In this document: positions 1,792 through 33,993 of the stretch, in pieces | Layout: each line of letters begins with the position of its first letter | How positions within the stretch are numbered: the stretch's first letter is position 1 | Assembly (NCBI GenBank): GCA_038065795.1 | Contig: JBBTQG010000003.1 | Location: forward strand, 1-33,993 | Reading direction: 5' to 3' | Source: Patescibacteria group bacterium | GTDB lineage: Bacteria > Patescibacteriota > Minisyncoccia > UBA6257 > HR35 | Length of the DNA stretch: 33,993 nucleotides | Program-made: the position numbers and the translations under genes | The notes under the pieces: model-generated | Database searches by the model: none | What the model saw: the letters and a program-made list of their open reading frames with translations, nothing else | Told to the model about the DNA's origin: nothing

Positions 1792-1917
1792 GGGGCAGAA
1801 GCCCCATTCATTTTTATTAAGCAATCGTTAATTATTTTTTTGAACATTACCTAGTTTGTTTTTGAAAATTTCTATTTATACAGATAGCATCAAAGTGGCT
1901 TCTCACCCATCATCGCC

Positions 1918-1954
1918 CCGCAATTATAACTATCAGTGATAGTTATAATTGCGG
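1918..1954. repeat. Perfect 18-bp inverted repeat overlapping the tRNA-Ser 3' end
   Basis: CCGCAATTATAACTATCA-G-TGATAGTTATAATTGCGG. Confidence 0.9.
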
Positions 1955-2036: not shown

Positions 2037-2056
2037 ATATTTTCTAACAGAATTTT

Positions 2057-13841: not shown

Positions 13842-13857
13842 GATTATATGAAAATTA

Positions 13858-14338
13858 TAAGGCATAGAATAAGCCGGATTTTGTCTTGCCCCGCTTAGCG
13901 GGGTGAAGTAGTCATCTATCTAGCCATAAACTTGCGTTTATGGTCAAGCGGTACTCCCAGCACCATAAATGATGCTCGATACGACCTTGAACCCAGAACT
14001 CAAAAACCGCTACGGCAAAATTGCTTTTGCCGAGATGACGGTAGCAAAAGAATGAATGATTTCACACCCGTCAACTTTTCACCTTTTTTACTCCGCTAAG
14101 CGGAGTCGTAGTATTGTCTCTGTGATTTTTGTCAGACATTACTGCCTGCCTCCTTTTAGGGGGATTCACTCGCGCACCCTTTATACCATTATTACAAGGA
14201 GATATTACCGATAAAACAATGTGCCTTCATTAGATATAAAGGGTGCGCGATGGGTTTCCGGACTTTCCTCCTATCCGTAGTTTTTGTAAATTAAAAATTT
14301 ACAAAAACTACGGATAGGCGACCACTTTCCATACCTTA
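13858..14338 (-). ncRNA. rnpB: RNase P RNA (expanded, about 480 nt)
   Basis: Minus strand has GAGGAAAGTCCGG (P4 5' side), ACAGAGA and GGTGAAA conserved regions, and 3' GACAAAATCCGGCTTAT. P1 is TAAGGTATGGAA/TTCTATGCCTTA. Confidence 0.92.
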
Positions 14339-20485: not shown

Positions 20486-20883
20486 TAAAAAATAAAGCGC
20501 AAGTTTTCTTTGTTTTAATTGTTATTTTGCTTTTAATTACAGTCGCTCTTGCTATTATGTTCGGAGGAGTTTTGTATAGCGAAACAATAACTCAAAAGTC
20601 AAAATTAGAAACAATTAAAGCTGATGGCTTACAAATGTCTGCTGTAAATCTTGCCGTTAAGGAGCTTATTTCAAATTCGCAATTTCAATTACCAACAACA
20701 ACGGTATCTGGAATTTCATCTGGAAGCGTTGTATATTCTGTAAAAAGAATTACGCCAACAACTACAAGAATAAACGCAAAAGCGACATTTGGCAAAATTA
20801 TAAAAGATTCGCAAACAGTAGTTGTGTTTAGCGCTTCAAGTACAACAAGCACAATAATAAGTATCAATGTTAATTATAATTAG
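20482..20883 (+). CDS. PilX-like minor pilin
   Basis: NKA|QVFFVL hydrophobic N-terminus lacking E5; third gene of an overlapping trio. Confidence 0.6.
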   Translation: MIKNKAQVFFVLIVILLLITVALAIMFGGVLYSETITQKSKLETIKADGLQMSAVNLAVKELISNSQFQLPTTTVSGISSGSVVYSVKRITPTTTRINAKATFGKIIKDSQTVVVFSASSTTSTIISINVNYN

Positions 20884-20921
20884 CAAATTTTAGAATTAAT
20901 ATTTTAGCTCATATGGTGAAA

Positions 20922-21036
20922 TTGTCCTGTTAGAAATGCCGTGGTGGTGGAATTGGAAGACACGCACGGTTCAGGGCTGTGTGTCCGCAAGGATGTGTGG
21001 GTTCGACTCCCACCCACGGCATTTCTAACGGGACAA
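20922..21036. mobile_element. CCCGTTAGAAA-family inverted-repeat element carrying tRNA-Leu
   Basis: TTGTCCTGTTAGAAAT (20922-20937) / ATTTCTAACGGGACAA (21021-21036), 15/16 match with one G-U pair. Confidence 0.75.
20938..21021 (+). tRNA. tRNA-Leu(CAG)
   Basis: GCCGTGG/CCACGGC + A; CACGG-TTCAGGG-CTGTG; variable arm; GTGGG-TTCGACT-CCCAC. Confidence 0.95.
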
Positions 21037-21157
21037 GGGAGTTATCGCCGTACCGCCCAATAATATTCCGTATTTTTTGGGATAGTAGATTTAATAAAAT
21101 CTTTAATTTTTCGAAATTTATATCATCTTACACAAGCGAAAATCTGCTTTGTAAGTT

Positions 21158-23008
21158 ATGAAAGAAATGCCACAACAAATAGTTATGGATATCACTCGTC
21201 AGTCATCAAAAACTGATAGAACAAAACAAAGGGTGACAAGAAGAAGGAGTAGCGCGCCAAGCGCAAGAGTAAGTCCAAAGATAAGCCCGAAAATAATTTC
21301 AGGCGACGTCGGAATATTGAAAATTATTCCACTCGGAGGACTTGAAGAAGTAGGAAGGAATCTTAATGTTTTTGAATATGTTCCAAAAGTTGGAAAGTCG
21401 GAAATATTAGTCGTTGATATGGGGTTGGGTTTCCCAGTAATCGGAGAAATGCCGGGCATAGATTTTGTATTGCCAAATATTGAGTATTTAACTGAAAATA
21501 AAGATAAAATCGTTGGAATTATAATTACGCACGGTCATTACGACCATATCGGAGCAATTCCATATTTTTTGGATAAAATTGGAAATCCACAAATTTATGC
21601 CGCTCCTTTAACTCGCGGATTAATCATAAAAAGACAAGAGGATTTTCCTCATGCGCCCAAGCCTCAAATTATAGAATTCAATAAAGATGACAGGAATGTT
21701 TTACAAATAGGCTCGTTTATCATAGAACATTTTCATGTTAATCATAGCATTCCAGACTCTGTTGGGTACTTTATCAAAACGCCGGTTGGAAATATTATGT
21801 ATACCGGTGACTTTAAAATTGATTTTACCCCAGTGTTTGATAAACCAGCTAATTTATCAAGAATAGTTGAGCTTGCTGGGAGGGGAGTAAAGTTATTGAT
21901 GATTGATTCAACGAATGCCTTTGAACCCGGGCATGCTATTTCCGAGAAAAAGATTATGGAAAATTTGGAAGAAATTATAAGACATTCAACGGGAAGAATT
22001 ATTGCTTCAACCTTCGCGTCGCTTCTTGAAAGAATACAGCAGTTAATATATATAGCTGGACTTTATGGGAGAAAAGTCGCAATAGAAGGGCGCTCAATGA
22101 AAACAAATGTTGAAGTAATAAGAAAATTAGGTTATTTGCAGGTTGCAAAGGGTGTGATTATTAAAGCCGAAGAAGCATTGAAACTTCCAGACAATGAAGT
22201 TTTGGTAATTTGCACTGGCGCTCAAGCTGAAGATTCTTCTGTACTAACAAGAATTGCGCATCGCGAACATAAATATTTTTCAATTATTCCGGGTGATACC
22301 CTTGTATTTTCTTCTTCTATAATTCCCGGAAATGAAAGGGCTGTTCAGGGACTTAAGGATGTATTAATAAAGCAAGGCGCAAAAGTCATTACATCTAAAA
22401 TTATGGATATTCACTCATCTGGTCATGCTCGAGCTGATGATGTTAGATTATTTATGAATTTAGTAAAACCAGAGTATGTTATGCCGATTCATGGAAATTA
22501 TTTTATGTTGAAAGCGGTAGAAGAAATAGCGCTTGAATTAGAATATAGCAAGGATAAAATTTTGATTGCGCAAAATGGAGATGTTATTGAAATGAATCCT
22601 GAAAAAATAGTCATCACAAATAATAAAGTTCCAGCAAATCTTGTATATGTTGATGGAATTGGAATTGGAGATATTGGAGAAGTTGTTATAAGGGACAGGC
22701 AAACTCTTTCAAAGGACGGGATGTTTGTTGTAATTGTTACAATAGACAGCCAGACTGGAGCGATACGAACAAGCCCTGATATCATTTCGCGAGGTTTTGT
22801 TTATTTGAGAGAATCCAGAGAATTACTAAGAGATGTTAGGAATCTTATTAGGAGAATTATTGAAAGAAATGTGAAGTTTCTTGGAGAGGAAGCTCCAATA
22901 ATTCAGGAAGAACAAATTAGATATCATTTAAAAGAGGAAATCGCAGAATTTTTGTTTAAAGTGACGCAAAGGAGACCGGTGGTGATACCGGTGGTGATAA
23001 AAGTTTAG
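21158..23008 (+). CDS. rnj: Ribonuclease J
   Basis: IIPLGGLEEVGRN, THGHYDHIG, NHSIPD, TGDFK, DSTN, HSSGH, PIHG. Confidence 0.96.
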   Translation: MKEMPQQIVMDITRQSSKTDRTKQRVTRRRSSAPSARVSPKISPKIISGDVGILKIIPLGGLEEVGRNLNVFEYVPKVGKSEILVVDMGLGFPVIGEMPGIDFVLPNIEYLTENKDKIVGIIITHGHYDHIGAIPYFLDKIGNPQIYAAPLTRGLIIKRQEDFPHAPKPQIIEFNKDDRNVLQIGSFIIEHFHVNHSIPDSVGYFIKTPVGNIMYTGDFKIDFTPVFDKPANLSRIVELAGRGVKLLMIDSTNAFEPGHAISEKKIMENLEEIIRHSTGRIIASTFASLLERIQQLIYIAGLYGRKVAIEGRSMKTNVEVIRKLGYLQVAKGVIIKAEEALKLPDNEVLVICTGAQAEDSSVLTRIAHREHKYFSIIPGDTLVFSSSIIPGNERAVQGLKDVLIKQGAKVITSKIMDIHSSGHARADDVRLFMNLVKPEYVMPIHGNYFMLKAVEEIALELEYSKDKILIAQNGDVIEMNPEKIVITNNKVPANLVYVDGIGIGDIGEVVIRDRQTLSKDGMFVVIVTIDSQTGAIRTSPDIISRGFVYLRESRELLRDVRNLIRRIIERNVKFLGEEAPIIQEEQIRYHLKEEIAEFLFKVTQRRPVVIPVVIKV

Positions 23009-23027
23009 CAGTTCAGAAAAAATTATT

Positions 23028-23152
23028 TGAAAGCACGCGTCTGGCGCCCCAGCGAGGCGCCAGCGCTCTGGCTCGCCCTCGCTCTTGTCAAGTATCGAGC
23101 TATGCTCGATACTTGACAAGCCATGCCCGCTCGGGCTCCGTAAGACTTTCAA
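23028..23152. repeat. GC-rich multi-hairpin element downstream of rnj
   Basis: TTGAAAG...CTTTCAA ends; CTGGCGCC/GGCGCCAG; perfect 17-bp IR CTTGTCAAGTATCGAGC-TAT-GCTCGATACTTGACAAG (23084-23120). Confidence 0.7.
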
Positions 23153-23266
23153 TTAATTTTTTTTTCACTTGTAGGATTTTGATTCATATGACAATCACTC
23201 GTTTCAAAATCCAGTAGTTAAAAAATTTATAAAAAAAGCTAACACAAACGAAATTGAGCTAGCTCA

Positions 23267-23539
23267 TTATCTTTGCGGAAGCTGTATAGATTGAAGCGCT
23301 TCCGTTAAGCGTTCAATGTAGCACTTCAATCTATTGATGGATTCTCGAGTGACAGAATCGTGTTCATTTTGTTCATTCATTATCATTTTCGCGACAGAAA
23401 GAAAATCTGATGCTGGGCTTAGCGCTTCGTCAACAGTTCTATATGGTTCTCCATGTAGCGATAAACCTTTACGCATTTCTTCTAATGCCCTATCAACACA
23501 AATTACAACTTTTGGGTTAGATATTACATAGTTAGACAT
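23267..23539 (-). CDS. Hypothetical protein
   Basis: 90-aa ORF with AAGGAGG upstream. Confidence 0.55.
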   Translation of the reverse strand: MSNYVISNPKVVICVDRALEEMRKGLSLHGEPYRTVDEALSPASDFLSVAKMIMNEQNEHDSVTRESINRLKCYIERLTEALQSIQLPQR

Positions 23540-23611
23540 TACATAGCCTCCTTAGTGCTACGAGCTAAAATAATAATGCAAAGAAAAAAGCTGATATGAT
23601 GGTGTGTCATA

Positions 23612-23890
23612 TCAGCTTTGGGTTGGCAGGTTTTTGGAGATTTCCCAGCTAATCCAGCCTGCTTTGGCGCAGCAGGTACTTTTCAATTTTCCGACGAGAT
23701 TTCCGTTGATGTACACTTCGCATTCCCAGTTTTGGGTGAAGCGAAGCCACGAATTTGAACCAAATGGATGTACGGGTAAGTTAATCCTTATATTCGGCGC
23801 TTTCAGTACTTTCCGCGCATCTTCGTAGAATGTGCATGTTCCGAAATTGATTTGTTCACAAATCTTTTCTAGCGTTTCTTTCGTGGTCAT
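23612..23890 (-). CDS. Hypothetical protein
   Basis: 92-aa ORF with AGGAG upstream. Confidence 0.5.
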   Translation of the reverse strand: MTTKETLEKICEQINFGTCTFYEDARKVLKAPNIRINLPVHPFGSNSWLRFTQNWECEVYINGNLVGKLKSTCCAKAGWISWEISKNLPTQS

Positions 23891-23933
23891 TGCGAGAACT
23901 CCTATTGTATAGGATTTCTGCTAAAATTATACA

Positions 23934-24446
23934 ATGAAAATTGAAATTTATACAGATGGAGGTGCAATTGATAATCCCGGACAAGGGGCTATTGGAGTTG
24001 TTATTAGATATAGTGGGAAAATAAAGGAATACGCAGAAAGAATAGGGGATTGCACGAATAATCAGGCTGAATATAAAGCTGTTATTTTTGGGTTGAAAAA
24101 ATTGAGACTTTTAATTGGGAAAGAGAAACGTGAAGCTTCTCATAATAGGATGCGTAGCATTATTGACAAAGATTTGAAATGCTTCACGTCAAAATTTCGC
24201 AGCAAACTGCGAAATTTTGACATTAAAACATCTGAAATAATTTTACATTTAGACAGCGAGCTTGTCGGTAATCAACTTTTGGGGAAATACAAAATTAAAG
24301 ACAAAGAACTCGCGCCATTATTTATTCAATACTGGAATTTAAAAATTGATTTACCAAATCTAAAAATCAAAATTGTTCCTCGCGAACAAAATAAAGAAGC
24401 CGATAAACTCGTAAAAAGCGCGCTATTTAAAAAAGAGCTGTTTTAG
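23934..24446 (+). CDS. rnhA: Ribonuclease HI family protein, with a 31-aa palindromic insertion
   Basis: YTDGG, NPG, TNNQAEY, LDSELV, VPREQNKEADKL; all four acidic catalytic residues are present. Confidence 0.92.
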   Translation: MKIEIYTDGGAIDNPGQGAIGVVIRYSGKIKEYAERIGDCTNNQAEYKAVIFGLKKLRLLIGKEKREASHNRMRSIIDKDLKCFTSKFRSKLRNFDIKTSEIILHLDSELVGNQLLGKYKIKDKELAPLFIQYWNLKIDLPNLKIKIVPREQNKEADKLVKSALFKKELF

Positions 24447-24467
24447 CATTTTGTATAACGCAAAGTA

Positions 24468-24515
24468 TTGACAAAATTTTAAAAGTGCTATAAAATTGTA
24501 ATACAAAGTATTACA
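24468..24515 (+). promoter_or_regulatory. TA promoter with operator palindrome
   Basis: TTGACA-N17-TAAAAT, then TGTAATAC-AAA-GTATTACA. Confidence 0.7.
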
Positions 24516-24635
24516 CAAATTAAATTGCCAAAAATGATGCCCAAAAATATATTTTTCGGCGCATAAAATAATTAATTATTTTATGCTTTATCATTTTTGG
24601 CTCTGAAAATAACAAGTTATTTTCAATGTTTTAAA

Positions 24636-24851
24636 ATGAGACAAGTTATAAATATTTCACTTCCGGAAAAATTAGCGGATGTGGTTGAAAGGGAAGTTAA
24701 AACTGGGCAATATGCCACAAAGAGCGAATTTTTTAGAGACCTTTTAAGATTATGGGAAGAAGAAAAAATTTTACAAAATTTGAGAAAAAGTCAGCAAGAT
24801 ATTTTAAATGGCAAATGTAAAATTTTAAAATCGTTAAAAGATTTACGATAA
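24636..24851 (+). CDS. Ribbon-helix-helix (CopG/ParD-like) antitoxin
   Basis: MRQVINISLPEKLADVVEREVKTGQYATKSEFFRDLLR; start re-called at ATG 24636. Confidence 0.85.
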   Translation: MRQVINISLPEKLADVVEREVKTGQYATKSEFFRDLLRLWEEEKILQNLRKSQQDILNGKCKILKSLKDLR

Positions 24852-24865
24852 AATTGGAAAGTTGA

Positions 24866-25123
24866 ATGAAAATTATTTATTCATCTAAATTTGAAAAAGA
24901 ATATAAAAAATTGCCTTATAAGATTAAGTTGATTGCGGAGAAAAAAGAGAAACTATTTCGTAAAAATCCATTTAATCCGATATTAAATACGCATAAACTT
25001 CACGGTAGATTATATGAATTTTGGTCGTTTAGTATAACCGATAAATACAGAATTGTTTTTGAATTCACAGAAAGCGATATAATTTATTTTCATTCAGTCG
25101 GCACTCATGAAATTTATAGATAA
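24866..25123 (+). CDS. RelE/YafQ-family toxin
   Basis: IIYSSKFEKEYKKL...LNTHKLHG...WSFSITDKYRIVF...VGTHEIY. Confidence 0.88.
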   Translation: MKIIYSSKFEKEYKKLPYKIKLIAEKKEKLFRKNPFNPILNTHKLHGRLYEFWSFSITDKYRIVFEFTESDIIYFHSVGTHEIYR

Positions 25124-25170
25124 TAAACTCGTAAAAAGCGTATTATTTAAAAAGGAATTGTTTTAGCATT

Positions 25171-25800
25171 TTATTTTTTGGCTTCAATTACTTTATCAAT
25201 AACCCCGTATTCTTTTGCTTCTTCGGCTGATAAATAAAAATCCCTGTCTGTGTCTTTACCGATATCTTCAAAAGTTTTTCCTGTGTGTTTAGCTAAAATT
25301 TTATTCACTCGTTCTTTTATTTTTATAATTTGCCTTGCTGTTATTTCAATTTCAATAGCTTGACCTCCAGCTTCACCCATAATTTGGTGAAGCAAAATTT
25401 CTGTATTTGGGAGCGCCATTCTTTTTCCTTTGGCGCCTGACGCCAAAAGAAGCGCTGCGGCTGACGCTGTCATTCCAATTCCAATTGTTGAAACATCTGG
25501 TTTGATAAATTGAATTGTGTCATAAATCGCCAATGCCGCCATAACAGAACCTCCGGGGGAGTTAATGTAAAAATGAATATCTTTTTCTGGGTCTTCATGT
25601 TCTAAAAATAAAAGTTGAGCAATTACAGCATTTGCAATCGGGTCAATTATTGGACCACTTAAAAAAATTATTCTGTCTTTTAATAATCTTGAATAAATAT
25701 CGTAAGCTCTTTCGCCAAATTGTGTTTTTTCAATAACATATGGAACAATATCAAATGATTTTGGTTCGAAAAATGACGCGTTTGATTTTTCTATTTTCAT
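25171..25800 (-). CDS. clpP: ATP-dependent Clp protease proteolytic subunit
   Basis: [32 protein letters not shown] (Ser), LLHQ (His), DTDRD (Asp). Confidence 0.97.
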
Positions 25801-26408
25801 TTTGATTTTATCTTTTTATTTGCTTTTTTAGCAAAATCCAAATTAATTGGACGAAAAAGAATAATGTATAAAATAATAAAATTGATAACCGCTCTTATTA
25901 TAAACCCTATTGGCAAAAAATAAAAAAGCCAAACAAATTCTGAAACAATAAAGCTTTTCACAAAGGCGTTTGGTGGAGTTTCATTAAAAATAATAAACAT
26001 TATCAAAAAGCTGAGCAAAAATACCGCGAGCATTACAAAAAATGATGATAAAATAGCGCTACCTAATACAAACTGAGAAATTAGTAAAATTAAAAATATG
26101 TACGAAAGCCAGAAAATCTTTTCTTTTTTCCATAATAAAATTAAAGCAATTAGCCAAATCAAAGTTAAAACAGGAATGCTTAAATTAAAAAATGGTTGAG
26201 CTAATAAGAATGGAAGGGGAGCCAAAAATGTTGAAAGCGTAAGTTTTGCTCCCTTTAAAAAATAAAGATTTAATAAAAAGAAAATTATAAAAAATAATAC
26301 AAGAACCCATTCTTTAATAAGAGACCAGTAAAAAAATAAATCACCCAAAGCAAGACCTGACACTAAATGAAAATTATTATATATCCAAGTTTTTGACTTC
26401 CTTAGCAT
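25797..26408 (-). CDS. Multi-pass membrane protein
   Basis: Highly hydrophobic 203 aa; overlaps both gyrB and clpP. Confidence 0.7.
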
Positions 26409-28269
26409 ATGTTTCTATAAATCGCCTTCTGGGCTCAACCTCAGCCCCCATTAATACATTAAAAAGCCTGCTTGCTTCCTCTGAATTTTCAATTGTAATT
26501 CTTTTTAAAACTCTATTTTCTGGGTTTAAAGTTGTTTCCCAAAGTTCTTCTGGATTCATTTCGCCTAAACCCTTATATCTTTGAACATCTGTTGTTTTAG
26601 TAGTTTTTTTCAAGATTTTGTTTCGTTCTATATCAGAAAACGCATAGTCAACTTTTTTGCCTTCGGTTATTTTATATAAAGGAGGAGTTGCGGCGTAAAG
26701 AAAATCTTGTTCAATCATTGTTTTAAAATATCTGTGAAAAAGAGTTAAAAGCAATGTTCGTATATGCGAGCCATCAATATCGCTATCAGTCGCTATTATT
26801 ATTTTTGAATATCTTAAATTTTCTAAATTAAAATCTTTGCCAACGCCAGAACCCATCGCGATAATCAAATTTTTAATTTCTTCTGATTTTAGAATTTTAT
26901 CTAATGTTGCTTTTTCAACATTCAAAATTTTTCCTCGCAAAGGCAAAACGGCTTGCGTGCTTCTGTCTCTGCCCGATTTCATAGAGCCTCCAGCAGAATC
27001 TCCTTCAACTATAAATAATTCTCTTTTTGACACATCTCTATTTGAGCAGTCAGCTAATTTTCCTGAAAGCGTAAGGGTAGGGGATAATCTTTTTTTGAAA
27101 ACAGCTTCTTTTGCTGATTTTGTTGCTTTCCTTACTTCAAAATTCAACAACACTCTTTGTAGGAGCGCTTTTACTTCGTTTGGATTTTTTCCAAAATATT
27201 CTTTTAGAAAATTGGTTAAATTACTTTCAACAAAATATCTAACTTCTGGATTTCCGAGTTTAGCTTTTGTCTGTCCTTCAAATTGCGGTTCGGCGATTTT
27301 TAGTGAAATAATTCCAACAAACCCGCTTTTTAGGTCGTCTGCTATCAACGAAGATTTTTCTTTGATAATATTTGCGCTTTTTCCAAAATCGTTAAATATT
27401 TTTAGCAATCCAGATTTGAATCCATTTAAGTGCGTTCCGCCCTCTGGGTTTTGAATGTTGTTAACAAAAGCAAGTTCTGTATTTTCTTGATTAACTGTAT
27501 ATCCAAAAATTATTTCAATTTCGCCTTTTTCTTCTTTGTGTGAAAAGTAAATTGGAGCTGATATAAGTTTTTTGTTTATAGTGATATGTTTAAAAAAATT
27601 ATTTAATCCTGTTTCAAAATAAAATCCATAACCAAATACAGAGTCCTCTCTTTCGTCATAAAAATTTATTCTTAATCCCGGAGTCAAAAAAGCTTGATGT
27701 CTTAAATAATCTAAAATTTTGTTTCTATCGTAATCTATTTTTTCAGTGAAAATTTGTTGGTCAGGTTCAAAAATTATAGTAGTTCCGGTTTTGGAACTTT
27801 TTTTGCCTTGTTCAACTTTTGTTTGTGGAATTCCGCGTTCGTACTCTTGTGTCCATTCAAAGCCGTCTCTATAAACCACTGCTCTAAGTTTTTTTGATAG
27901 CGCGTTGACAACTGATAATCCTACGCCATGAAGACCGCCAGCCACTTTATAAACTTTATGAGAAAATTTTCCACCTGCATGCAAAAGAGTTAAAACCGTT
28001 TCGAGCGCGGTTTTTTTTGTTTTTAAGTGTATGTCAACGGGAATTCCTCTGCCGTCATCAGAAACAAAAATTTTGCCTCCTTTTAAAAGTTTTACATTAA
28101 TATTTTTTGCATAACCGGCGATTGCTTCATCAACCGCATTTCCAACAATTTCAAAAACCAGATGTTGTAATCCATCAGCGCCAGTTGAACCAATATACAT
28201 ACCCGGCCTTTTCCTAACCGCTTCAATCCCTTCTAAAACCTGAATGTGTTCTGCTTTATAGTCGCTCAT
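26377..28269 (-). CDS. gyrB: Type IIA topoisomerase B subunit (DNA gyrase B)
   Basis: EAVRKRPGMYIG, DDGRGIP, GGLHGVG, VEGDSAGG, PLRGKILN, TDSDIDG, QRYKGLGEMNP; ends KNLDI. ParE is not strictly excluded. Confidence 0.88.
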   Translation of the reverse strand: MSDYKAEHIQVLEGIEAVRKRPGMYIGSTGADGLQHLVFEIVGNAVDEAIAGYAKNINVKLLKGGKIFVSDDGRGIPVDIHLKTKKTALETVLTLLHAGGKFSHKVYKVAGGLHGVGLSVVNALSKKLRAVVYRDGFEWTQEYERGIPQTKVEQGKKSSKTGTTIIFEPDQQIFTEKIDYDRNKILDYLRHQAFLTPGLRINFYDEREDSVFGYGFYFETGLNNFFKHITINKKLISAPIYFSHKEEKGEIEIIFGYTVNQENTELAFVNNIQNPEGGTHLNGFKSGLLKIFNDFGKSANIIKEKSSLIADDLKSGFVGIISLKIAEPQFEGQTKAKLGNPEVRYFVESNLTNFLKEYFGKNPNEVKALLQRVLLNFEVRKATKSAKEAVFKKRLSPTLTLSGKLADCSNRDVSKRELFIVEGDSAGGSMKSGRDRSTQAVLPLRGKILNVEKATLDKILKSEEIKNLIIAMGSGVGKDFNLENLRYSKIIIATDSDIDGSHIRTLLLTLFHRYFKTMIEQDFLYAATPPLYKITEGKKVDYAFSDIERNKILKKTTKTTDVQRYKGLGEMNPEELWETTLNPENRVLKRITIENSEEASRLFNVLMGAEVEPRRRFIETYAKEVKNLDI

Positions 28270-28343
28270 TTTTTTTGAAATAACAAAAATAACCGCCTAA
28301 ATCGGCTATATTTTAATTATAACACACTATAAAAATTCAAAAG

Positions 28344-28769
28344 TTAAAAGTTATGATGCAATTTTTTTCTGATATTTTTAAAAGCAACAATTTTTAAATG
28401 AATTATAAGTGCTATAAAAATTAAACTAACTATCCATATTTTAAGAGGAATAAAAATCCAACCAAAAATTAAATCAATTATAAATATTATTAAAAGTTTT
28501 GGAATATGTGTATGTGCTTTTATAGCTGCTTCTGCATATTCTGAATTAGACCATACTTGAAATACATTCTCAAATCTTTTTGGATCGAAGAGATCTAATC
28601 CTTGTGTTCTTATATGCATTCCAATTTTTTCGTGATAAAAATATTTTTTCTTATCATCCCAAGAGTATCCTTTGCTAATTATAATGTCTAATAATCTTTC
28701 AACTTCCTCTTTTGAGCGATTTTTCAATCGTGGGTTTATCTCTGTTATTTCTTTGTAAGATGGCTTCAT
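28344..28769 (-). CDS. Hypothetical protein with two C-terminal TM helices
   Basis: 141-aa ORF with a hydrophobic C-terminus. Confidence 0.65.
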   Translation of the reverse strand: MKPSYKEITEINPRLKNRSKEEVERLLDIIISKGYSWDDKKKYFYHEKIGMHIRTQGLDLFDPKRFENVFQVWSNSEYAEAAIKAHTHIPKLLIIFIIDLIFGWIFIPLKIWIVSLIFIALIIHLKIVAFKNIRKKLHHNF

Positions 28770-28840
28770 GTTTTTAATTTAACGATAAATTTAATTTGGT
28801 AATATATTTCGCTTAACTCGTTTTTATGTAAAATATTTTT

Positions 28841-29098
28841 TTATGGACTTTTTGTGATTGAGTGAAGACCAATTCGCCTGATAATAAATTTATCGCCTGT
28901 AATTTTGAATGTAAATCGATAATCCTTGCTAATTCTTCCTTCCCAAATGTCGATTACCCCGTGAATTTTCTTTGTGTCCAATGAGGGATGATATGGATTT
29001 TCTGAAAGAAATTTTAATTGCTTGTCTGTTCTAATCTGAATTTGTTTCGGCAATTTTTCGTAATCTTTCTTGAATGGGTCAGTTAATATAATTTTCAT
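28841..29098 (-). CDS. RelE/ParE-superfamily toxin
   Basis: FKKDYEKLP...NPYHPSLDTKKIHG..IWEGRISKDYRFTF..RRIGLH. Confidence 0.85.
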   Translation of the reverse strand: MKIILTDPFKKDYEKLPKQIQIRTDKQLKFLSENPYHPSLDTKKIHGVIDIWEGRISKDYRFTFKITGDKFIIRRIGLHSITKSP

Positions 29099-29107
29099 TC
29101 AACCCAA

Positions 29108-29353
29108 CTATTTTTTTAATTTATCTAGCGCTTTTTTTAATTCTTTCCAATTTTTATAAGGACCACTAACTTTACCATTCTTTATAGCAATGTCAGCTTC
29201 TCGTTCTTTTTTTTGCCATTCTTTTGTCCAAAACCAAAGCTGGTCTTTATCAATTGAATTATAAATACTTTTTAATTCATCGTATTCTTTTTGCGGAACA
29301 ACAACAAGTGCTCCTTTTTCTGTTAAATTTTTTGGAATAGTTATTGTAACCAT
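29108..29353 (-). CDS. Putative antitoxin
   Basis: TITIPK N-terminus; DQLWFWTKEWQKKEREAD..IKNGKVSGP; directly upstream of the toxin. Confidence 0.75.
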   Translation of the reverse strand: MVTITIPKNLTEKGALVVVPQKEYDELKSIYNSIDKDQLWFWTKEWQKKEREADIAIKNGKVSGPYKNWKELKKALDKLKK

Positions 29354-29388
29354 TGTTGAAATTATAACATAAATTTATAATTTTGGAT

Positions 29389-30061
29389 TTAATCTAAAAT
29401 TTGGAATCCGACTTCGGGGCTGAATGCCGCAAGTGTTTTATCATTTGCGGCGCCAAAAAACAAGTTTTTGGCTTTGCGGTGAAGAGCGTCGGTTTTAAAT
29501 AAGAATATTTCTAATGTCCCGCCAACGCTGAAAATAAACAAAGTTTATTTTCAGCCACGAAATTATATTAAATAATTCTTAATTAATGAAATTTCGCGAT
29601 TTTAATTTTTCAAGATGACCGGCAAAAGATTCGAATGCCGAAAAGCCCAAAGATATATCTTTGGGCGCCGAAAACGATAAATCATTTTCGGCATTGTTTT
29701 TCGGTGCTGACAGCGATTTATCGCTGTCAGCTTGTTCGTTTGAAAATGTAATATGAGTATGAATATTAATATCTAATCAGTGTTGGTCTGCGTGTAGTCC
29801 GCGCGAGTCTGCGTCCTTGAGACTGATTTCGCCTGTAATATTTGAAATTTCCATAGAGCCATTAAATTCTGAGGAATGATATTTTTTGTCGTTTATATCA
29901 ATATACGCAACTTTAATATATTACGCGTTTCCTAATCCAAAAAAATATCCACCAAAAATTTTCCATTCTTTGAGAAAATTCATAAATTCTTTATTTGGAT
30001 ATTCTTCGTTTAAGTCAAATCGCAATATCCAATCCCCGGGTTTTTCAAGAATTATTTTCAT
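29389..30061 (-). pseudogene. DUF296/PPC-domain protein pseudogene with four repeat insertions
   Basis: Hand translation: MKIILEKPGDWILRFDLNEE...GYFFGLGNA*YIKVAYID...EFNGSMEISNITGEISLKD[ins]NIHTHITFSNEQ[ins]FESFAGHLEKLK[ins]VGGTLEIFL...HRK[ins]FSPEVGFQILD*. The HxH and GHL motifs are those of the PPC family. Confidence 0.85.
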
Positions 30062-30605
30062 TTTTTAAAAGTTTTAAAAGATGCAGTGTATTACCTCGCT
30101 TAAATGTTTCCCACGCAGATTCTCGTTCATTAAAATAATCCTGAAGAATTTTACTTTTTTCTTCGTCAGTAAAAATAACACCTCCGCCTGTAAATGCGTT
30201 TATAAATGTTGTTTTTTGATAATTTATATTATTAAGAGTTGTTGCCTGTTCAGGATTTTTTAATTTAATAACAATTTCATATGGACTGCATAAATTAATA
30301 GAAAAATCACTTTTTTCTTCAAAATAAAAGCGTCTCGTTTTGTTTGTTTTTTCAACATCTCCGTCTACCAGTGTGGTCATTGGTGTATTTCTATCCAAAA
30401 TTCCAGCTTCATTTGTTCCAGACCCAATTAAAAGATGCTCAAATAAAGTAAGCGTGTTTTGAAATCTATATAAACCAGTATTTTCATCTTCTAAAAGCAA
30501 GTCATCTCTTTTTTTCATTAACTCCTCGAGTGATTTTTGTTTAATCCGTTGTTCTTGTTCTCCTGATGTCTTTTCTAAATTTGTACTCGGTGTTCCTTCT
30601 ATCAT
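30045..30605 (-). CDS. Hypothetical protein
   Basis: 186-aa ORF; no motif recognised. Confidence 0.65.
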   Translation of the reverse strand: MIEGTPSTNLEKTSGEQEQRIKQKSLEELMKKRDDLLLEDENTGLYRFQNTLTLFEHLLIGSGTNEAGILDRNTPMTTLVDGDVEKTNKTRRFYFEEKSDFSINLCSPYEIVIKLKNPEQATTLNNINYQKTTFINAFTGGGVIFTDEEKSKILQDYFNERESAWETFKRGNTLHLLKLLKNENNS

Positions 30606-30635
30606 TATATTTTTATTATATGCAATAAAATTTTT

Positions 30636-31106
30636 TTAACTGTATCTCAAAATTTTATCTATACTTAATGATCCTGCGCCAGTGAATAAAATCAAAATAA
30701 AAAATGCGAGTAAAAAAATTGATTCAGAAATTGGCTCTTTTTTAAATTTCGCTATCAAAAAGATTATCCAAAGTATACTTATCAGCTTTATAAAAAATCC
30801 TGTAAAAATTAATAAAGAGCTAAAAAAATAAATCCAAGCCAGAAGATTTTTTTTGGTAAATGGTTGTCGTAATTTTTCGGGAGTTATTTTTTTTCGTTGT
30901 TTTTCGGCTTTTTCTTTTACGATTTCAACAGGAGCGCTGTTCATTATAGATAATTGTTTTATGGCTGTTTTCTTTTTTTCGTCAATTTTTTCTACAATAT
31001 TATTTTTTGTAAAAAATTCAATACTTTTTAAAAATAATCCAACAAAAATAAGAGTTCGCGCTAAAAAAATTCCAATTGAACTTGATAATAAAATTTGTTG
31101 AGCCAT
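30636..31106 (-). CDS. DoxX-like membrane protein
   Basis: LAR..IFVGLF N-terminal helix; LLIFTGFF; C-terminal GAGSLSID. Confidence 0.65.
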   Translation of the reverse strand: MAQQILLSSSIGIFLARTLIFVGLFLKSIEFFTKNNIVEKIDEKKKTAIKQLSIMNSAPVEIVKEKAEKQRKKITPEKLRQPFTKKNLLAWIYFFSSLLIFTGFFIKLISILWIIFLIAKFKKEPISESIFLLAFFILILFTGAGSLSIDKILRYS

Positions 31107-31239
31107 TATAATACTGAAAATTTTTTACATCAAGTTAATTTTTTAATGACGAATTTTCAGCGTGAAACTTTACAAAATTTTGTATAATTTATTTAAAATA
31201 AACAACCGTAATTTATTATAAGAAGTTTCACATAGATTA

Positions 31240-32283
31240 ATGAATAACGATAACCATCTATATTTTAACATTGTCAATCAGGAATATATGCCATATCAAC
31301 CGCAATTATACAAGGATTTGGAAAAATACAAAAGTTTCAAAAAATTGTGGGAAAATCACGGCTTAAAACTATATAAAAAAGACCCTCAGGTTGAATTTGA
31401 AAAACTCAAAAAATTAGGAATAAAAATAATAACTATTTTGGACGCAGAATATCCTGAAAGTTTAAAGAATATTCCAAGCCCTCCGTTGGGGTTTTATTTG
31501 CTTGGCGAGATGCCTTTAAATTTTCCATTAGCAATTGTTGGAACAAGAAAAGCTGGACATTATGGATTATCAATTGCGACAAAATTTGCAAAAGCATTGG
31601 CGGGATTAGGAGTTGTGATTGTAAGCGGGTTAGCATATGGAATTGATTCAGCGGCGCATAAGGGAACAGTTGAAATTGGCGGAAAAACTATCGCGGTTTT
31701 GGGAGAGGGAATTGATTTGGTTTTGGATTCGCCAAAAAGAAATTTGGTTGCTCAAATTTTAGAAACAGGAGGAGGAGTAATAAGCGAGTTTCCATTGGGA
31801 GCTGGAGGGTTAAAAGGAAATTTTCCATTAAGAAACAGAATAGTTTCAGGGTTAAGTTTGGGAACTATTGTAATAGAAGCGCCAATCGATTCAGGAGCGT
31901 TAATTACGGCAAGATTGGCGATGGAGCAGGGGAAGGAAGTTTTTGTCGTCCCGGCTGAAATTGTAAATAAAAATTTTGAAGGAAGCCATAGATTAATTCA
32001 GCAAGGAGCGAAACTAATAACAACAATTGACGACATTCTCACGGAATTTGATTTTCATAATACAAAAGCAGATGCAAAAGCATATAATGAATTGTTTAAA
32101 TTAAAATTATCGCCAGCCGAAGAAGAAATTTTTAACGCCTTAAAAATAGAGAGCTTGGATTTAATGGGGCTTCAGGAGGAGCTGGATATGAGCACGGGCG
32201 AGCTCTTATCTCTTTTGACCCATTTAGAAATCAAGGGTATAATTAAAAATATCGGAGGGAAGTTTATATGTACGGGCTCGTAG
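31240..32283 (+). CDS. dprA: DNA-processing protein DprA
   Basis: YPESLKNIPSPP, AIVGTR, VSGLAYGIDSAAH, FPLRNRIVSGLS, SGALITA, LIQQGA. Confidence 0.96.
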   Translation: MNNDNHLYFNIVNQEYMPYQPQLYKDLEKYKSFKKLWENHGLKLYKKDPQVEFEKLKKLGIKIITILDAEYPESLKNIPSPPLGFYLLGEMPLNFPLAIVGTRKAGHYGLSIATKFAKALAGLGVVIVSGLAYGIDSAAHKGTVEIGGKTIAVLGEGIDLVLDSPKRNLVAQILETGGGVISEFPLGAGGLKGNFPLRNRIVSGLSLGTIVIEAPIDSGALITARLAMEQGKEVFVVPAEIVNKNFEGSHRLIQQGAKLITTIDDILTEFDFHNTKADAKAYNELFKLKLSPAEEEIFNALKIESLDLMGLQEELDMSTGELLSLLTHLEIKGIIKNIGGKFICTGS

Positions 32284-32347
32284 TTCAGTTGGTTAGAACG
32301 CTACATTGACATTGTAGAGGTCTCCGGTTCGAGTCCGGACGAGCCCA
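32274..32347 (+). tRNA. tRNA-Val(GAC)
   Basis: GGGCTCG/CGAGCCC + A; CTACA-TTGACAT-TGTAG; TCCGG-TTCGAGT-CCGGA; overlaps the last 10 nt of dprA. Confidence 0.95.
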
Positions 32348-32396
32348 ATAAAAATCACTAGGGGCATTTTTCTTTTATAATTAAGTTGTTGAATTT

Positions 32397-32480
32397 GCCG
32401 AAGTAGCTCAGTTGGTCATCCGTCAAAAGCATATGCATTTTGACGGACCCGCCAAAATGCGCAGCTTTTGGCGGGGAGCA
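32397..32480 (+). pseudogene. 5' part of a disrupted tRNA-Thr-like gene, with two hairpins inserted in the D-loop
   Basis: GCCGAAG-TA-GCTC-AGTTGGT [hairpins 32419-32447 and 32448-32475] GAGC-A. Confidence 0.8.
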
Positions 32481-32489
32481 ATTAAAAAA

Positions 32490-32750
32490 ATGCATTATAC
32501 TTATGTATTATTATTAAGTAATAAAAAATTTTACATAGGTTCGACAAGTAATTTGAAATTAAGATTAAAAGATCATAAAAATGGTCGAGTAAAATCAACA
32601 AGACAATTTTTACCGTTAGAATTAGTATATTTTGAGTGTTGTTTTTCTAAAACAGACGCAATAAAACGGGAGTATCAATTAAAGACTGGATTCGGAAGAG
32701 GGTATCTTAGAAGAAGATTGGAAAATTTTTTAAACAATACGCCGACCTAG
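32490..32750 (+). CDS. Small GIY-YIG nuclease (86 aa)
   Basis: YTYVL...FYIGSTSNLKLRLKDHKNG...LVYFE...AIKREYQLK; start re-called at ATG 32490; the stop codon lies inside tRNA-Thr. Confidence 0.92.
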   Translation: MHYTYVLLLSNKKFYIGSTSNLKLRLKDHKNGRVKSTRQFLPLELVYFECCFSKTDAIKREYQLKTGFGRGYLRRRLENFLNNTPT

Positions 32751-32813
32751 CTCAATTGGCAGAGCAACGGTTTTGTAAACCGTAGGTTCGGGGTTCAAGT
32801 CCCCGGGTCGGCT
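32741..32813 (+). tRNA. tRNA-Thr(TGT)
   Basis: GCCGACC/GGTCGGC + T; ACGGT-TTTGTAA-ACCGT; CGGGG-TTCAAGT-CCCCG. Confidence 0.95.
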
Positions 32814-32870
32814 ATAATATTAATTAAATCGCGAATAAAAAGATATAAAAACTAAAAAGGGCTTTAGCCC

Positions 32871-32890
32871 TTCGAATCCGACCTTCGGCT
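32871..32890 (+). pseudogene. 3' part (T-loop to discriminator) of the disrupted tRNA-Thr-like gene
   Basis: TTCGAAT-CCGAC-CTTCGGC-T. CTTCGGC pairs 7/7 with GCCGAAG at 32397, but not with the intact tRNA. Confidence 0.8.
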
Positions 32891-32908
32891 AAGAAATGTG
32901 ACGGACAA

Positions 32909-32973
32909 TCACCCAGTAAATTAGTGGTTCGTCAGGTCATCCGACCTGACGAACCAGTCGGATGACTGGGCGA
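32909..32973. repeat. Nested GC-rich hairpin
   Basis: TGGTTCGTCAGGTC-ATCC-GACCTGACGAACCA inside TCACCCAGT/ACTGGGCGA. Confidence 0.75.
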
Positions 32974-32991
32974 GCCCGACCTTAAGCTCAA

Positions 32992-33231
32992 ATGAACCCA
33001 GAAGCTTTTTCAAAAGAAAAACCAAAGGAATTTTTTAGCAAAGAAGAAATCCAAGATGCTTTATTGTTTTCAATGGAAAAAGAAGATTTGGTTGTTGAAA
33101 ATAGAATGTTGAGTTTATTAAATAATAGAATGGAGTGGGGTGGTAATAAGGAAATTAAATTCAGCGATTTATCAGAACAAGAAATTGAAACAATCAAAAG
33201 AGTATTAGAATTGAAAAAAGAAGCAGAATAA
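32992..33231 (+). CDS. Small acidic hypothetical protein
   Basis: 79-aa Glu/Lys-rich ORF. Confidence 0.6.
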   Translation: MNPEAFSKEKPKEFFSKEEIQDALLFSMEKEDLVVENRMLSLLNNRMEWGGNKEIKFSDLSEQEIETIKRVLELKKEAE

Positions 33232-33296
33232 GTAAATGGGAAATAATTATTGGCGAGGTGTCGGAGTGTCGGAGTGGGGTACAAAGTGCCATTTTA

Positions 33297-33368
33297 GGAG
33301 GAGTGCGCCGAATTGGTAAGGTAGCAGTTTCTGCGCCCAAGGCGCATCCGTCACGGACGGAGAAAACT
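33297..33368 (+). pseudogene. 5' half of a relic tRNA-Ser(CGA)-like gene, with two hairpins inserted in the anticodon
   Basis: GGAGGAG-TG-CGCCGAATTGGTAAGGTA-GCAGT-TT-C[TGCGCC-CAA-GGCGCA TCCGTC-ACG-GACGGA]GA-AA-ACT. Confidence 0.6.
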
Positions 33369-33605
33369 ATGTATTATATTTATATAATTTATAGCAAAAA
33401 ATTAAATAAAAAATATGCTGGTATTACAAAAAATTTAAAGAAACGAATTTATGAACATAATCATAGTAAAGTGCCATTTACATCAAAGGCAAAAGATTGG
33501 AAGTTAATTTACTATGAAGCATTTCTAAATAAGCAAGATGCATATGCGGAAGAAAAATTTTTGAAAAGTGGAAAGGGCAGAGTTCGTTTAAAATATTTAT
33601 TATAA
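33369..33605 (+). CDS. Small GIY-YIG nuclease (78 aa)
   Basis: YIYIIYS...KYAGITKNLKKRIYEHN...LIYYEAF...AYAEEKFLKSG; start re-called at ATG 33369. Confidence 0.92.
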   Translation: MYYIYIIYSKKLNKKYAGITKNLKKRIYEHNHSKVPFTSKAKDWKLIYYEAFLNKQDAYAEEKFLKSGKGRVRLKYLL

Positions 33606-33659
33606 AATACCTTAACAGATATTTGGCGAGGTGCCGGAGTGGTTTAACGGAGCGGCTCG

Positions 33660-33768
33660 CCCCGTTAGAAAATGGAGGATTGGCAGAATGGTAATGCACT
33701 GGTTTCGAAAACCAGCGGGAGTAATCCCTTGCAGGTTCGAATCCTGCATCCTCCGTTTTCTAACGGGG
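33660..33768. mobile_element. CCCCGTTAGAAAA inverted-repeat element carrying tRNA-Ser(CGA)
   Basis: Perfect 13-bp IR at 33660-33672 / 33756-33768. Confidence 0.85.
33674..33755 (+). tRNA. tRNA-Ser(CGA), intact, nested
   Basis: GGAGGAT/ATCCTCC + G; CTGGT-TTCGAAA-ACCAG; V-arm GGGA/TCCC; GCAGG-TTCGAAT-CCTGC. Confidence 0.95.
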
Positions 33769-33896
33769 TAAAAAAACCGCGTCTTCAAAAAAGACTCGTG
33801 AGTTCGAATCTCACCCTCGCCGAATAAAAAATTAATTTGCTTAAAGGTTAGTTGGCAGATATAAAATAGGGCTTGCCCTTTCAAATCCTCCTCCCG

Positions 33897-33936
33897 CCAC
33901 ACAAAATTCCCATTTTAAAATGGGAATTTTGTGTGG
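33897..33936. repeat. Perfect 40-bp palindrome
   Basis: CCACACAAAATTCCCATTTT|AAAATGGGAATTTTGTGTGG. Confidence 0.92.
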
Positions 33937-33993
33937 TGCCTTTTGGTTAAAATCCGAACTTTTTTTGACGAAAATCCTGATTGCGAATTTTGA

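Follow-up and report, generated by a model that had tools for sequence, protein, structure and literature searches.

A tRNA-Leu(CAG) gene wrapped in an inverted repeat as probable cargo of a hairpin-type mobile element in a Patescibacteria genome

The wrapped tRNA-Leu(CAG) gene and its surroundings

The sequence analysed here (hereafter, the window) is a stretch of 33,993 nucleotides from a Patescibacteria group bacterium. It corresponds to contig C3 of a 581-kb genome, which consists of 56 contigs, has a G+C content of 33%, is 99.6% complete as judged by marker genes and was detected in groundwater metagenome runs. Between pilin-like genes and the gene for RNase J, the conserved place of tRNA-Leu(CAG), the window carries a tRNA-Leu(CAG) gene enclosed by the two arms of an inverted repeat (IR), with short fragments resembling a second tRNA-Leu gene on either side. 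We consider that this tRNA-Leu(CAG) is probably the cargo of a short hairpin-type mobile element that replaced the resident tRNA-Leu. The locus comprises the following features:

20907–20924, plus strand: putative 5' relic (stub) of the resident tRNA-Leu, GCTCATATGGTGAAATTG, 18 nt from the acceptor 5' strand to the D-loop (tRNA positions 1–18), followed by a deletion of ~19 nt
20922–20937, plus strand: left IR arm, TTGTCCTGTTAGAAAT, with the core at 20926–20936; T20937 pairs with the discriminator A21021
20938–21021, plus strand: cargo tRNA-Leu(CAG), detected by ARAGORN and Rfam
21022–21036, plus strand: right IR arm, TTTCTAACGGGACAA, with the core at 21022–21032
21033–21059, plus strand: 'B-type' element-borne flank ACAAGG, then putative 3' relic of the resident tRNA-Leu (GAG ... 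CGCCCA), with ~30 nt deleted

The limits of the tRNA-Leu(CAG) were placed at 20937–21022 by ARAGORN and at 20938–21021 by Rfam (46 bits), and the gene is flanked by TTGTCCTGTTAGAAAT on the left and ATTTCTAACGGGACAA on the right. A prediction made earlier from the letters of the window alone (hereafter, the original prediction) held that a 16-nt IR abuts both ends of this gene. The repeat search confirmed it, with arms at 20922–20944 and 21014–21036 that are 23 nt long and 96% complementary, each made up of the 16 nt of flank and the 7-bp acceptor stem, with a single C/T difference that would form a G-U pair in RNA. So did the RNA fold of positions 20915–21045, which yielded one continuous stem (−64.6 kcal/mol, z = −6.58, 0 of 200 shuffles as good). 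The core of the arms, CCCGTTAGAAA/TTTCTAACGGG, was correctly predicted to be shared with an element at 33660–33768, where it wraps a tRNA-Ser(CGA) gene (33674–33755). Sequences matching CCYGTTAGAAA with at most 1 mismatch occur 7 times in the window, compared to 1.47 expected, a number reached in 0 of 100 shuffles, and the arm pairs of the wrapped tRNA-Leu and tRNA-Ser(CGA) genes account for 4 of the 7.

For comparison, we scanned metagenome contigs for IR arms with a T-loop motif between them, which returned at least 80 elements (denoted by L numbers); the figures given for metagenome elements refer to the 80 listed. The stub upstream of the left arm, which the original prediction described as Leu-like, is identical at 14 of 18 positions to the 5' ends of two tRNA-Leu(CAG) genes from the same taxonomic family and occupies the position of the outer 5' halves in the metagenome Leu copies. 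A covariance-model search with the stub alone gave no tRNA match (cmscan, E ≤ 10), 18 nt being too short to be informative, and a genome-wide 18-mer control was used instead. Matches of this quality to any of 21 reference 5' ends occurred 39 times per 1.16 million non-tRNA genome positions, so that the chance of finding one in a 10-nt window beside the IR is ~3e-4. On the other side of the element, the prediction had recognised no 3' relic, and here it has to be revised: the 27-nt remnant at 21033–21059 can be aligned to the sequence on the right of elements L255, L214, and L246, all of which retain a whole outer 3' half. In 5 of the 6 metagenome Leu copies, the arrangement is anticodon stem-GTTCA[C/T], the element, and [G/A]CAAGG-GAG-stem; the right flank in the window, ACAAGG GAG TTATCGCCGTACCGCCCA, is alignable to these copies but lacks ~30 nt. 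The cargo itself is most similar to the element-borne tRNA-Leu genes of L214 and L246 (85.7% identity, compared to 82.1% for the best native gene of the family), with which it also shares the variable arm and the exact arm-tRNA junction. Collectively, the relics and the affinity of the cargo to element-borne tRNA-Leu genes suggest that the resident gene was invaded and decayed, with the cargo now being the sole tRNA-Leu(CAG) detected in the 581-kb assembly. Searches of the whole assembly (40 genes by ARAGORN, 38 hits by Rfam) did not find tRNA-Ser(TGA), tRNA-Gly(TCC), or tRNA-Leu(CAA).

The history of the locus was assessed by a DNA search of 24 other genomes of the family; RNase J was found in most of these, and 15 loci were examined. 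The tRNA-Leu(CAG) gene lies directly upstream of RNase J in all 15, whereas the IR, which could have been a conserved feature present in all relatives, flanks the gene in none of them (0/15). Thus, the position of the tRNA gene appears to be ancestral and the wrap to have been gained in the present lineage. RNase J is also encoded on 5 of the 6 metagenome contigs with a wrapped tRNA-Leu(CAG); its start lies ~330–470 nt downstream of the tRNA in 4 of the contigs, as in the window, and ~2.3 kb away in L248. The RNase J proteins of the wrapped metagenome contigs are 48–54% identical to that of the present genome, compared to 62–70% for the 15 unwrapped family relatives. The presence of the wrap here and in distant lineages, along with its absence from the sampled close relatives, is difficult to reconcile with descent and fits repeated invasion of one conserved tRNA gene; judging from these sequence comparisons, it points to a spread of the wrapped tRNA-Leu that would be horizontal and gene specific. 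As an assembly check, contigs from the runs of two studies cross the Leu locus without change.

The inverted-repeat family and its tRNA-carrying members

The exact IR pair enclosing 1–130 nt of cargo was found in 13 of the 61 genomes searched, with no matches in the reverse-read control. The 13 comprise the present genome and 12 of the 36 genomes that represent other families of the order; the pair was found in 0 of 24 genomes of its own family. When species genomes were scanned for IR copies enclosing 68–98 nt of cargo, at least 80 loci were returned from groups of the candidate phyla radiation (CPR), Deltaproteobacteria, Planctomycetota, Omnitrophota, Nitrospirae, and others; the named relatives of the elements and proteins of the present genome are mostly Patescibacteria. 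The present genome has at least 8 bounded copies of the IR, of which two carry tRNA genes, three hold cargo of 67, 77, and 88 nt, and two are 'empty' hairpins with 5-nt loops (C32:5641–5667 and C50:23818–23844). The latter, a 27-bp hairpin plus 6 nt, inserts 33 nt in frame (...CVYPVRNPISNGASPKN...) into an open reading frame (ORF) which we take to encode a GDP-fucose-synthase-like protein.

One further copy, at C43:8329–8603, encloses 253 nt and is filled by a complete 94-amino acid (aa) ORF that spans both arms. Its product belongs to the GIY-YIG nuclease family (PF01541, residues 10–75, E = 8e-19), and homologous ORFs are bounded by an AGAGA variant of the arms in one Omnitrophota and one Parcubacteria contig. 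A protein search with the 94-aa sequence returned 2815 homologous clusters. Among 9 homologs that were fetched, the N-terminus reads MNPVRD in 7 and MNPARD in 1, with the extension being absent from 1, and the C-terminus ends with LTG in all 9 and with RFLSLTG in 7. These conserved terminal residues are encoded by the arms, suggesting that the arms and the nuclease gene form a single unit. The ORF of the C43 copy starts (ATG AAT) within the 6-bp flank on the left, and its TGA stop codon shares bases with the ATG of the gene that follows (GGGATGA), an arrangement suggesting that its translation is coupled to that of the host gene. Short members of the family carry 5–120 nt of other sequence or a whole tRNA gene; given the copies that enclose the GIY-YIG ORF, the tRNA-bearing ones are plausibly non-autonomous, in line with the original prediction of a non-autonomous IR family.

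The predicted recurrence of tRNA cargo was borne out, with a real tRNA gene being detected by ARAGORN in 76 of the 80 metagenome elements. The 76 cargo genes are Ala-CGC (23) and Ala-TGC (1); Pro-TGG (13), Pro-CGG (6), and Pro-GGG (1); Val-CAC (7) and Val-TAC (4); Thr-CGT (5) and Thr-TGT (4); Leu-CAG (6); Gly-CCC (3); and Ser with TGA, CGA, or GGA anticodons (3). Cargo genes span at least 8 amino acids (Ala, Pro, Val, Thr, Leu, Gly, Ser, and Met). By contrast with these selected elements, only 1 of 81 unselected ones, L106 from a Bdellovibrionales metagenome-assembled genome, carries a tRNA gene (tRNA-Ala). Within the phylum, tRNA-bearing elements were found in 3 of 401 sampled genomes, namely the present one and two of one other genus with tRNA-Met. 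A check for carriage by phages gave 0 matches to the IR and T-loop pattern in viral contigs.

The original prediction further proposed that the targets are genes for the same amino acid, and two analyses support this. When elements were cut out by script with 0–12 additional nucleotides on each side and ARAGORN was rerun, an outer tRNA was called across the junction in 46 of 80 tRNA-cargo elements but in only 1 of 82 unselected ones, that one again being L106. In addition, the flanks resemble the tRNA carried by the same element beyond the 99th percentile of controls with cargo for other amino acids in 37 of 76 cases (5' flank in 26, 3' flank in 25, both in 14). Where scored, the homology to the outer gene mostly ends at cargo positions 31–38 and mostly restarts at 34–38, that is, in the anticodon loop; a few tRNA copies (L251 and L257) sit in the D-loop. 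The outer 5' half of L239 shows no difference from the cargo over 34 nt. By visual inspection, taking out the inserted segment gives back TCA|TAA in L309 (Met) and TTTG|TAAAC in the copies with Thr cargo, implying a cut between anticodon positions 35 and 36. On L257, at ~4700–4960, a wrapped tRNA-Leu(CAG) lies inside the D-loop region of a second wrapped tRNA-Leu(CAG) that has arms of its own, CCCGTTACAAA ... TTTGTAACGGGG.

The tRNA copies also differ from the generic members of the family in their flanks. Generic copies, which are often located at gene starts, have like flanks in 51 of 81 cases and 6-bp direct repeats of the form RTNNAY (at least 5 of 6 positions matching) in 40 of 81. In tRNA copies, one flank is RTNNAY-like and often equals the native loop sequence, whereas the other is GCNNGY-like and element-borne; of 81 tRNA copies, 58 have such unlike A/B flanks and 3 have direct repeats. 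Direct repeats are absent from both tRNA copies of the window. The second tRNA element and other features of the window related to the family are listed below:

2041–2051, minus strand: solitary half-site similar to a left arm, TCTGTTAGAAA, with one mismatch, separated from the downstream tRNA-Ser(GCT) by 4 nt (AATA)
5559–5657, no strand assigned: non-tRNA family member CCCGTTAAAAA ... TTTTTAACGGG, 99 bp, AAAAA variant, 77-nt cargo, direct repeats GTGAAC/GTGAAT (6 bp)
32487–32750, plus strand: small GIY-YIG ORF without IR (PF01541, 57.9 bits), its end overlapping the start of tRNA-Thr(TGT) at 32741
33369–33605, plus strand: small GIY-YIG ORF without IR (PF01541, 56.4 bits), stopping 19 nt before the outer tRNA-Ser
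33625–33660, plus strand: 5' half of an outer class-II tRNA-Ser (acceptor, D-arm, anticodon-stem 5' strand), ending in the element-borne flank GCTCGC (33655–33660)
33660–33768, plus strand: second tRNA-cargo element, with IR arm 33660–33672, tRNA-Ser(CGA) 33674–33755, and IR arm 33756–33768
33768–33822, plus strand: flank GTAAAA, then 3' half of the outer tRNA-Ser (anticodon-stem 3' strand, variable arm, T-arm with TTCGAAT, acceptor 3' strand, G73), without an anticodon

The Ser element is a younger case than the Leu element, with both outer halves still in place. The outer class-II tRNA (33625–33822) retains its acceptor, D, variable, and T arms and has lost the anticodon, and ARAGORN called it across the junction once the element had been removed by script; no single scripted deletion restored a proper anticodon loop. 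The copy displays the A/B flank pattern (GCTCGC on the left, GTAAAA on the right) and is similar in layout to L243, in which the element splits a tRNA-Ser(TGA) at the equivalent place. The body of the outer gene resembles the tRNA-Ser(GGA) of the same genome, and the split gene is also similar to a gene of the Ser(TGA) type in L243. The DprA-tRNA cluster is not conserved in 22 family loci, which therefore offered no orthologous empty site for comparison. Just past the outer tRNA-Ser, at 33897–33936, lies a 40-nt perfect palindrome (terminator-like), a flank part of which recurs with 93% identity at C56:24166–24204, ~400 nt from the IR element C56:24616–24725.

The half-site that the original prediction noted before tRNA-Ser(GCT) was found, with one mismatch and with no right arm recognised to match it; it is possibly a decayed wrap. 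An unrelated 31-nt palindrome, CAATTATAACTATCA/TGATAGTTATAATTG, at 1917–1950 (minus strand), downstream of tRNA-Ser(GCT) and followed by CGGGG, occupies the place expected for the right arm and may have replaced part of one. The non-tRNA member at 5559–5657 is in frame and adds 35 codons at the N-terminus of a DegT-like aminotransferase ORF (4344–5675, minus strand). In 19 matched orthologs from the family, the alignment begins only at residue 23–42 (at 38–42 in 11 of the 19), and the open frames are mostly 403–432 aa long, compared to 443–446 aa here. Of the 7 GIY-YIG matches in the genome, 5 adjoin tRNA genes or lie within a few hundred nucleotides of them, including the two in the window; IR-less ORFs of this kind are found beside tRNA-Thr (32487–32750), the outer tRNA-Ser (33369–33605), tRNA-Cys (C40:17191–17397), and tRNA-Lys/Glu (C56:30804–30944). 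The solved chain nearest to the protein encoded at 33369–33605 is 1zg2, a UPF0213 protein (a weak match, E = 0.26). Elsewhere in the genome, a tRNA-Asn(GTT) gene (C40:82–399) contains a 243-nt intron at position 35 (ARAGORN), presumably a group I intron.

Proposed mechanism and competing explanations

In the mechanism that we propose, the two arms CCCGTTAGAAA/TTTCTAACGGG would pair with each other and stack on the acceptor stem of the tRNA. The full-length element would be the 94-aa GIY-YIG gene between the arms, from which short forms with the same arms and other cargo would derive. A tRNA-carrying element would enter a tRNA gene of the kind that it carries, at one of the loops and usually inside the anticodon; the insertion would break the resident gene and the cargo copy would take over its function. 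At the Leu locus, a resident tRNA-Leu(CAG) may have been invaded in this way and later shrunk to the 18-nt 5' stub and the 27-nt 3' remnant. By analogy with Ssn nucleases, which act on single-stranded DNA hairpins, we infer that the 94-aa GIY-YIG protein moves the elements, acting in trans on a hairpin or cruciform. This could take the form of homing, in which a break in a naive tRNA gene would be repaired from the occupied allele, with the outer halves serving as homology arms. Alternatively, insertion might be guided by structure into any tRNA loop, the survivors being those hits whose cargo replaces the broken gene. If homing applies, the 3-nt deletion that recurs in the outer 3' half of each of the six Thr copies with a right flank that was read would reflect co-conversion or shared ancestry. 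Transcription of the cargo tRNA would rely on the resident promoter, and its release on RNase P and 3' processing. The RNase P RNA is encoded in the window (13854–14338, minus strand; Rfam); its match measures 485 nt, compared to the 367 positions of the model, and contains ~120 nt of extra sequence.

Several observations weigh against this scheme. Contigs from four groundwater DNA runs, aligned to positions 20500–33993, contained no precise join across either element and revealed no occupied/empty polymorphism within the population; at the Ser locus, the groundwater contigs break at the surrounding tRNA repeats and are uninformative on empty sites. Several of the metagenome contigs are near-duplicates of one another, so that the counts overstate the number of independent events. 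The Leu cargo is just modestly closer to element-borne copies than to family natives, which by identity alone would permit wrapping in place. The outer and cargo genes of the Ser copy differ in type, and with no tRNA-Ser(TGA) found in the assembly, the self-compensation argument fails to account for this copy. A GIY-YIG homolog is encoded at just 5 of the 80 metagenome tRNA-element loci (within 1 kb in 3), and the two Y1 transposase homologs of the genome (see below) could be the true mobiliser. In its broadest form, for which we suggest the name 'cuckoo tRNAs', the proposal is that a hairpin transposon driven by a tiny GIY-YIG single-strand nuclease, aimed by structure at the tip of the anticodon hairpin in tRNA genes that fold into cloverleaves as single strands, and surviving only where its cargo substitutes for the broken gene, moves tRNA genes horizontally between phyla, overwriting native copies at their conserved loci and leaving split or nested relics, among them element-in-element copies like L257. 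We offer this tentatively, as a possible account about which considerable doubt is warranted.

[quoted passage not shown] The genome does encode two paralogous ~240-aa proteins with a Y1 transposase domain (PF01797; IS200/RAYT-like), at C10:10661–10921 (41 bits) and C49:3070–3336 (33 bits), and the tRNA subfamily inserts without target duplication beside a short site, a logic resembling that of IS200/IS605 elements, which is also touched upon in PMC11893778. Yet neither Y1 gene has an IR half-site (at most 1 mismatch) within 1.2 kb, whereas the GIY-YIG ORF is enclosed by the IR in three phyla and has its near-invariant termini encoded by it. The co-occurring nuclease or transposase that the original prediction had recommended looking for is hence present within the IR in the case of GIY-YIG, whereas the Y1 homologs lack IR flanks.

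It is very unlikely that the IR is an RNA-level leader-trailer helix for processing or stability (cleaved, for example, by RNase III) rather than the end of a mobile element. As RNA, the arms would lengthen the acceptor stem into a single 23-bp helix, and the cargo tRNAs are the sole copies of their anticodon in the assembly, so that the wrapped precursor must be processed somehow. However, the IR is missing at the 15 orthologous tRNA-Leu loci of the family, and an identical IR bounds non-tRNA cargo, a protein ORF, and 5-nt loops, and also occurs in frame within protein genes. Furthermore, the sequence of the arms, beyond their pairing, is conserved across phyla, which fits recognition of DNA by a protein.

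More improbable still is the reading in which the resident tRNA-Leu was wrapped in place by two flanking hairpin insertions that lost their inner halves, with no import and with the stub being unrelated. The ancestral position of the gene speaks for it, as do the nearly equal identities of the cargo to family natives and to element-borne copies. Against it, both the stub and the 3' relic can be aligned to outer halves of nested copies from other contigs, and the cargo agrees with the element-borne lineage in its variable arm and in the exact point at which arm and tRNA join. In addition, four distant lineages have an equivalent architecture immediately upstream of RNase J, and a fifth has it on the contig that encodes RNase J.

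Least probable of all is an intron-like or split tRNA gene whose outer tRNA would function after removal of the hairpin and inner tRNA, because the outer anticodon is absent or altered in most copies, including both in the window, the outer Leu gene has large deletions, the splicing endonuclease PF01974 has 0 matches in this 99.6%-complete genome (the control being positive in 4 archaea), and no group I intron or other intron family of Rfam was detected at E ≤ 10 in 20800–21200 or 33560–33900. The outer stems of the Ser copy are intact save for the anticodon arm (acceptor 7/7, variable arm, T-arm with TTCGAAT) and the outer anticodon stems of other copies pair with compensatory changes, but such pairs are equally expected if the outer halves are the native gene of each host. 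Scripted deletions of the window copies gave many different tRNA calls, a clean 7-nt loop being obtained only in some foreign copies (Met L309 and Thr L239).

Two further candidates were set aside. Bulge-helix-bulge junctions were considered, and neither the motif, as judged by eye, nor a splicing endonuclease gene was found. An integron attC site (GTTAGAA compared with the GTTRRRY box) was dismissed informally: the boxes do not follow each other as they should in a cassette, there was no sign of an integrase context, and family members occur in frame within genes.

Comparison with known systems

tRNA genes are usually seen as stable landmarks that are passed on vertically and that serve large islands as passive sites of insertion. 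At the locus described here, an element of ~105 bp with a complete tRNA gene appears to have overwritten the host copy at its native position. If this is correct, the elements would provide a mechanism by which streamlined genomes have their tRNA genes replaced horizontally, would account for stray tRNA halves and oddly flanked tRNA calls in metagenome-assembled genomes, and would assign a natural role and a target class to the little-studied small GIY-YIG (Ssn-like) nucleases, as well as representing a compact, structure-targeted system of DNA insertion. The 'cuckoo tRNA' scheme, should it hold, would amount to a way of turning over tRNA genes that has not been recognised before. We found no description of IR-wrapped or nested tRNA genes in the full-text literature (supplements and many subscription journals being outside its scope), and tRNA swapping by hairpin elements between uncultivated bacteria is apparently widespread and undescribed. 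For annotation, it should be borne in mind that in-frame hairpin insertions of this IR family occur inside ordinary protein genes.

MITEs, REP elements, and Rickettsia palindromic elements are short non-coding palindromic derivatives of a coding element. The present family is similar in that the terminal core is common to GIY-YIG-bearing copies (AGAGA variant) and short copies, and in that some copies are inserted in frame within protein genes. As regards target-site duplication, 6-bp direct repeats were observed at the ends of 40/81 generic copies, compared to 3/81 for tRNA copies. Unlike in MITEs, the coding partner is only the 94-aa GIY-YIG nuclease rather than a known transposase, and unlike in MITEs and REP elements, one subfamily carries complete and, from their sequence, apparently functional tRNA genes. 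Furthermore, unlike in REP/RAYT or IS200/IS605 systems, the Y1 genes of this genome are not flanked by the repeat.

Group I introns in the anticodon loops of tRNA genes and free-standing GIY-YIG homing endonucleases are known as homing elements. Insertion into the anticodon loop of a specific tRNA gene, the GIY-YIG family, and the patchy spread to one conserved site are shared with them, whereas no ribozyme was found in the present elements, the insert is ~105 nt and consists mostly of tRNA, and the harm would be offset by a replacement gene rather than by splicing. Integrative islands and phages insert into tRNA genes by means of integrases and restore the 3' end; they are kilobases long and duplicate only the 3' part of the gene. 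In both cases, the tRNA gene is the target and the incoming sequence preserves tRNA function, but here ~105 bp would bring the full tRNA and the old gene is split in the anticodon.

The closest parallel to the coding form is provided by the Ssn nucleases, small single-domain GIY-YIG proteins like the 94-aa protein of the present elements. As outlined in the main text of Chenal et al. (2025; PMC11893778), their genes are bounded by hairpin-forming NTS/SRM repeats that occur in many extra genomic copies, the authors note an IS-like 'repeat-gene-repeat' layout, and SsnA cleaves single-stranded DNA adjoining its hairpin. According to that description, each flank is a complete palindrome of 20–50 nt, whereas the flanks of the present elements are the two arms of one enclosing hairpin. 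The published SRM motif matched 0 of the 8 elements of this genome (30-nt flanks, both strands) and once genome-wide, and the main text of the Ssn paper (PMC11893778) contains 0 mentions of tRNA. In CPR bacteria, rRNA genes contain non-intron insertions that encode GIY-YIG proteins and are located mostly at the tops or bases of RNA stem-loops, as described in the main text of PMC11270868. These insertions share the bacterial group, the GIY-YIG coding capacity, and the non-intron nature with the present elements; that main text covers rRNA genes, with 0 occurrences each of 'inverted repeat' and 'tRNA' (PMC11270868). Taken together, the elements combine hairpin, MITE-like and tRNA-homing kinds of mobile DNA with an unusual self-compensating design.

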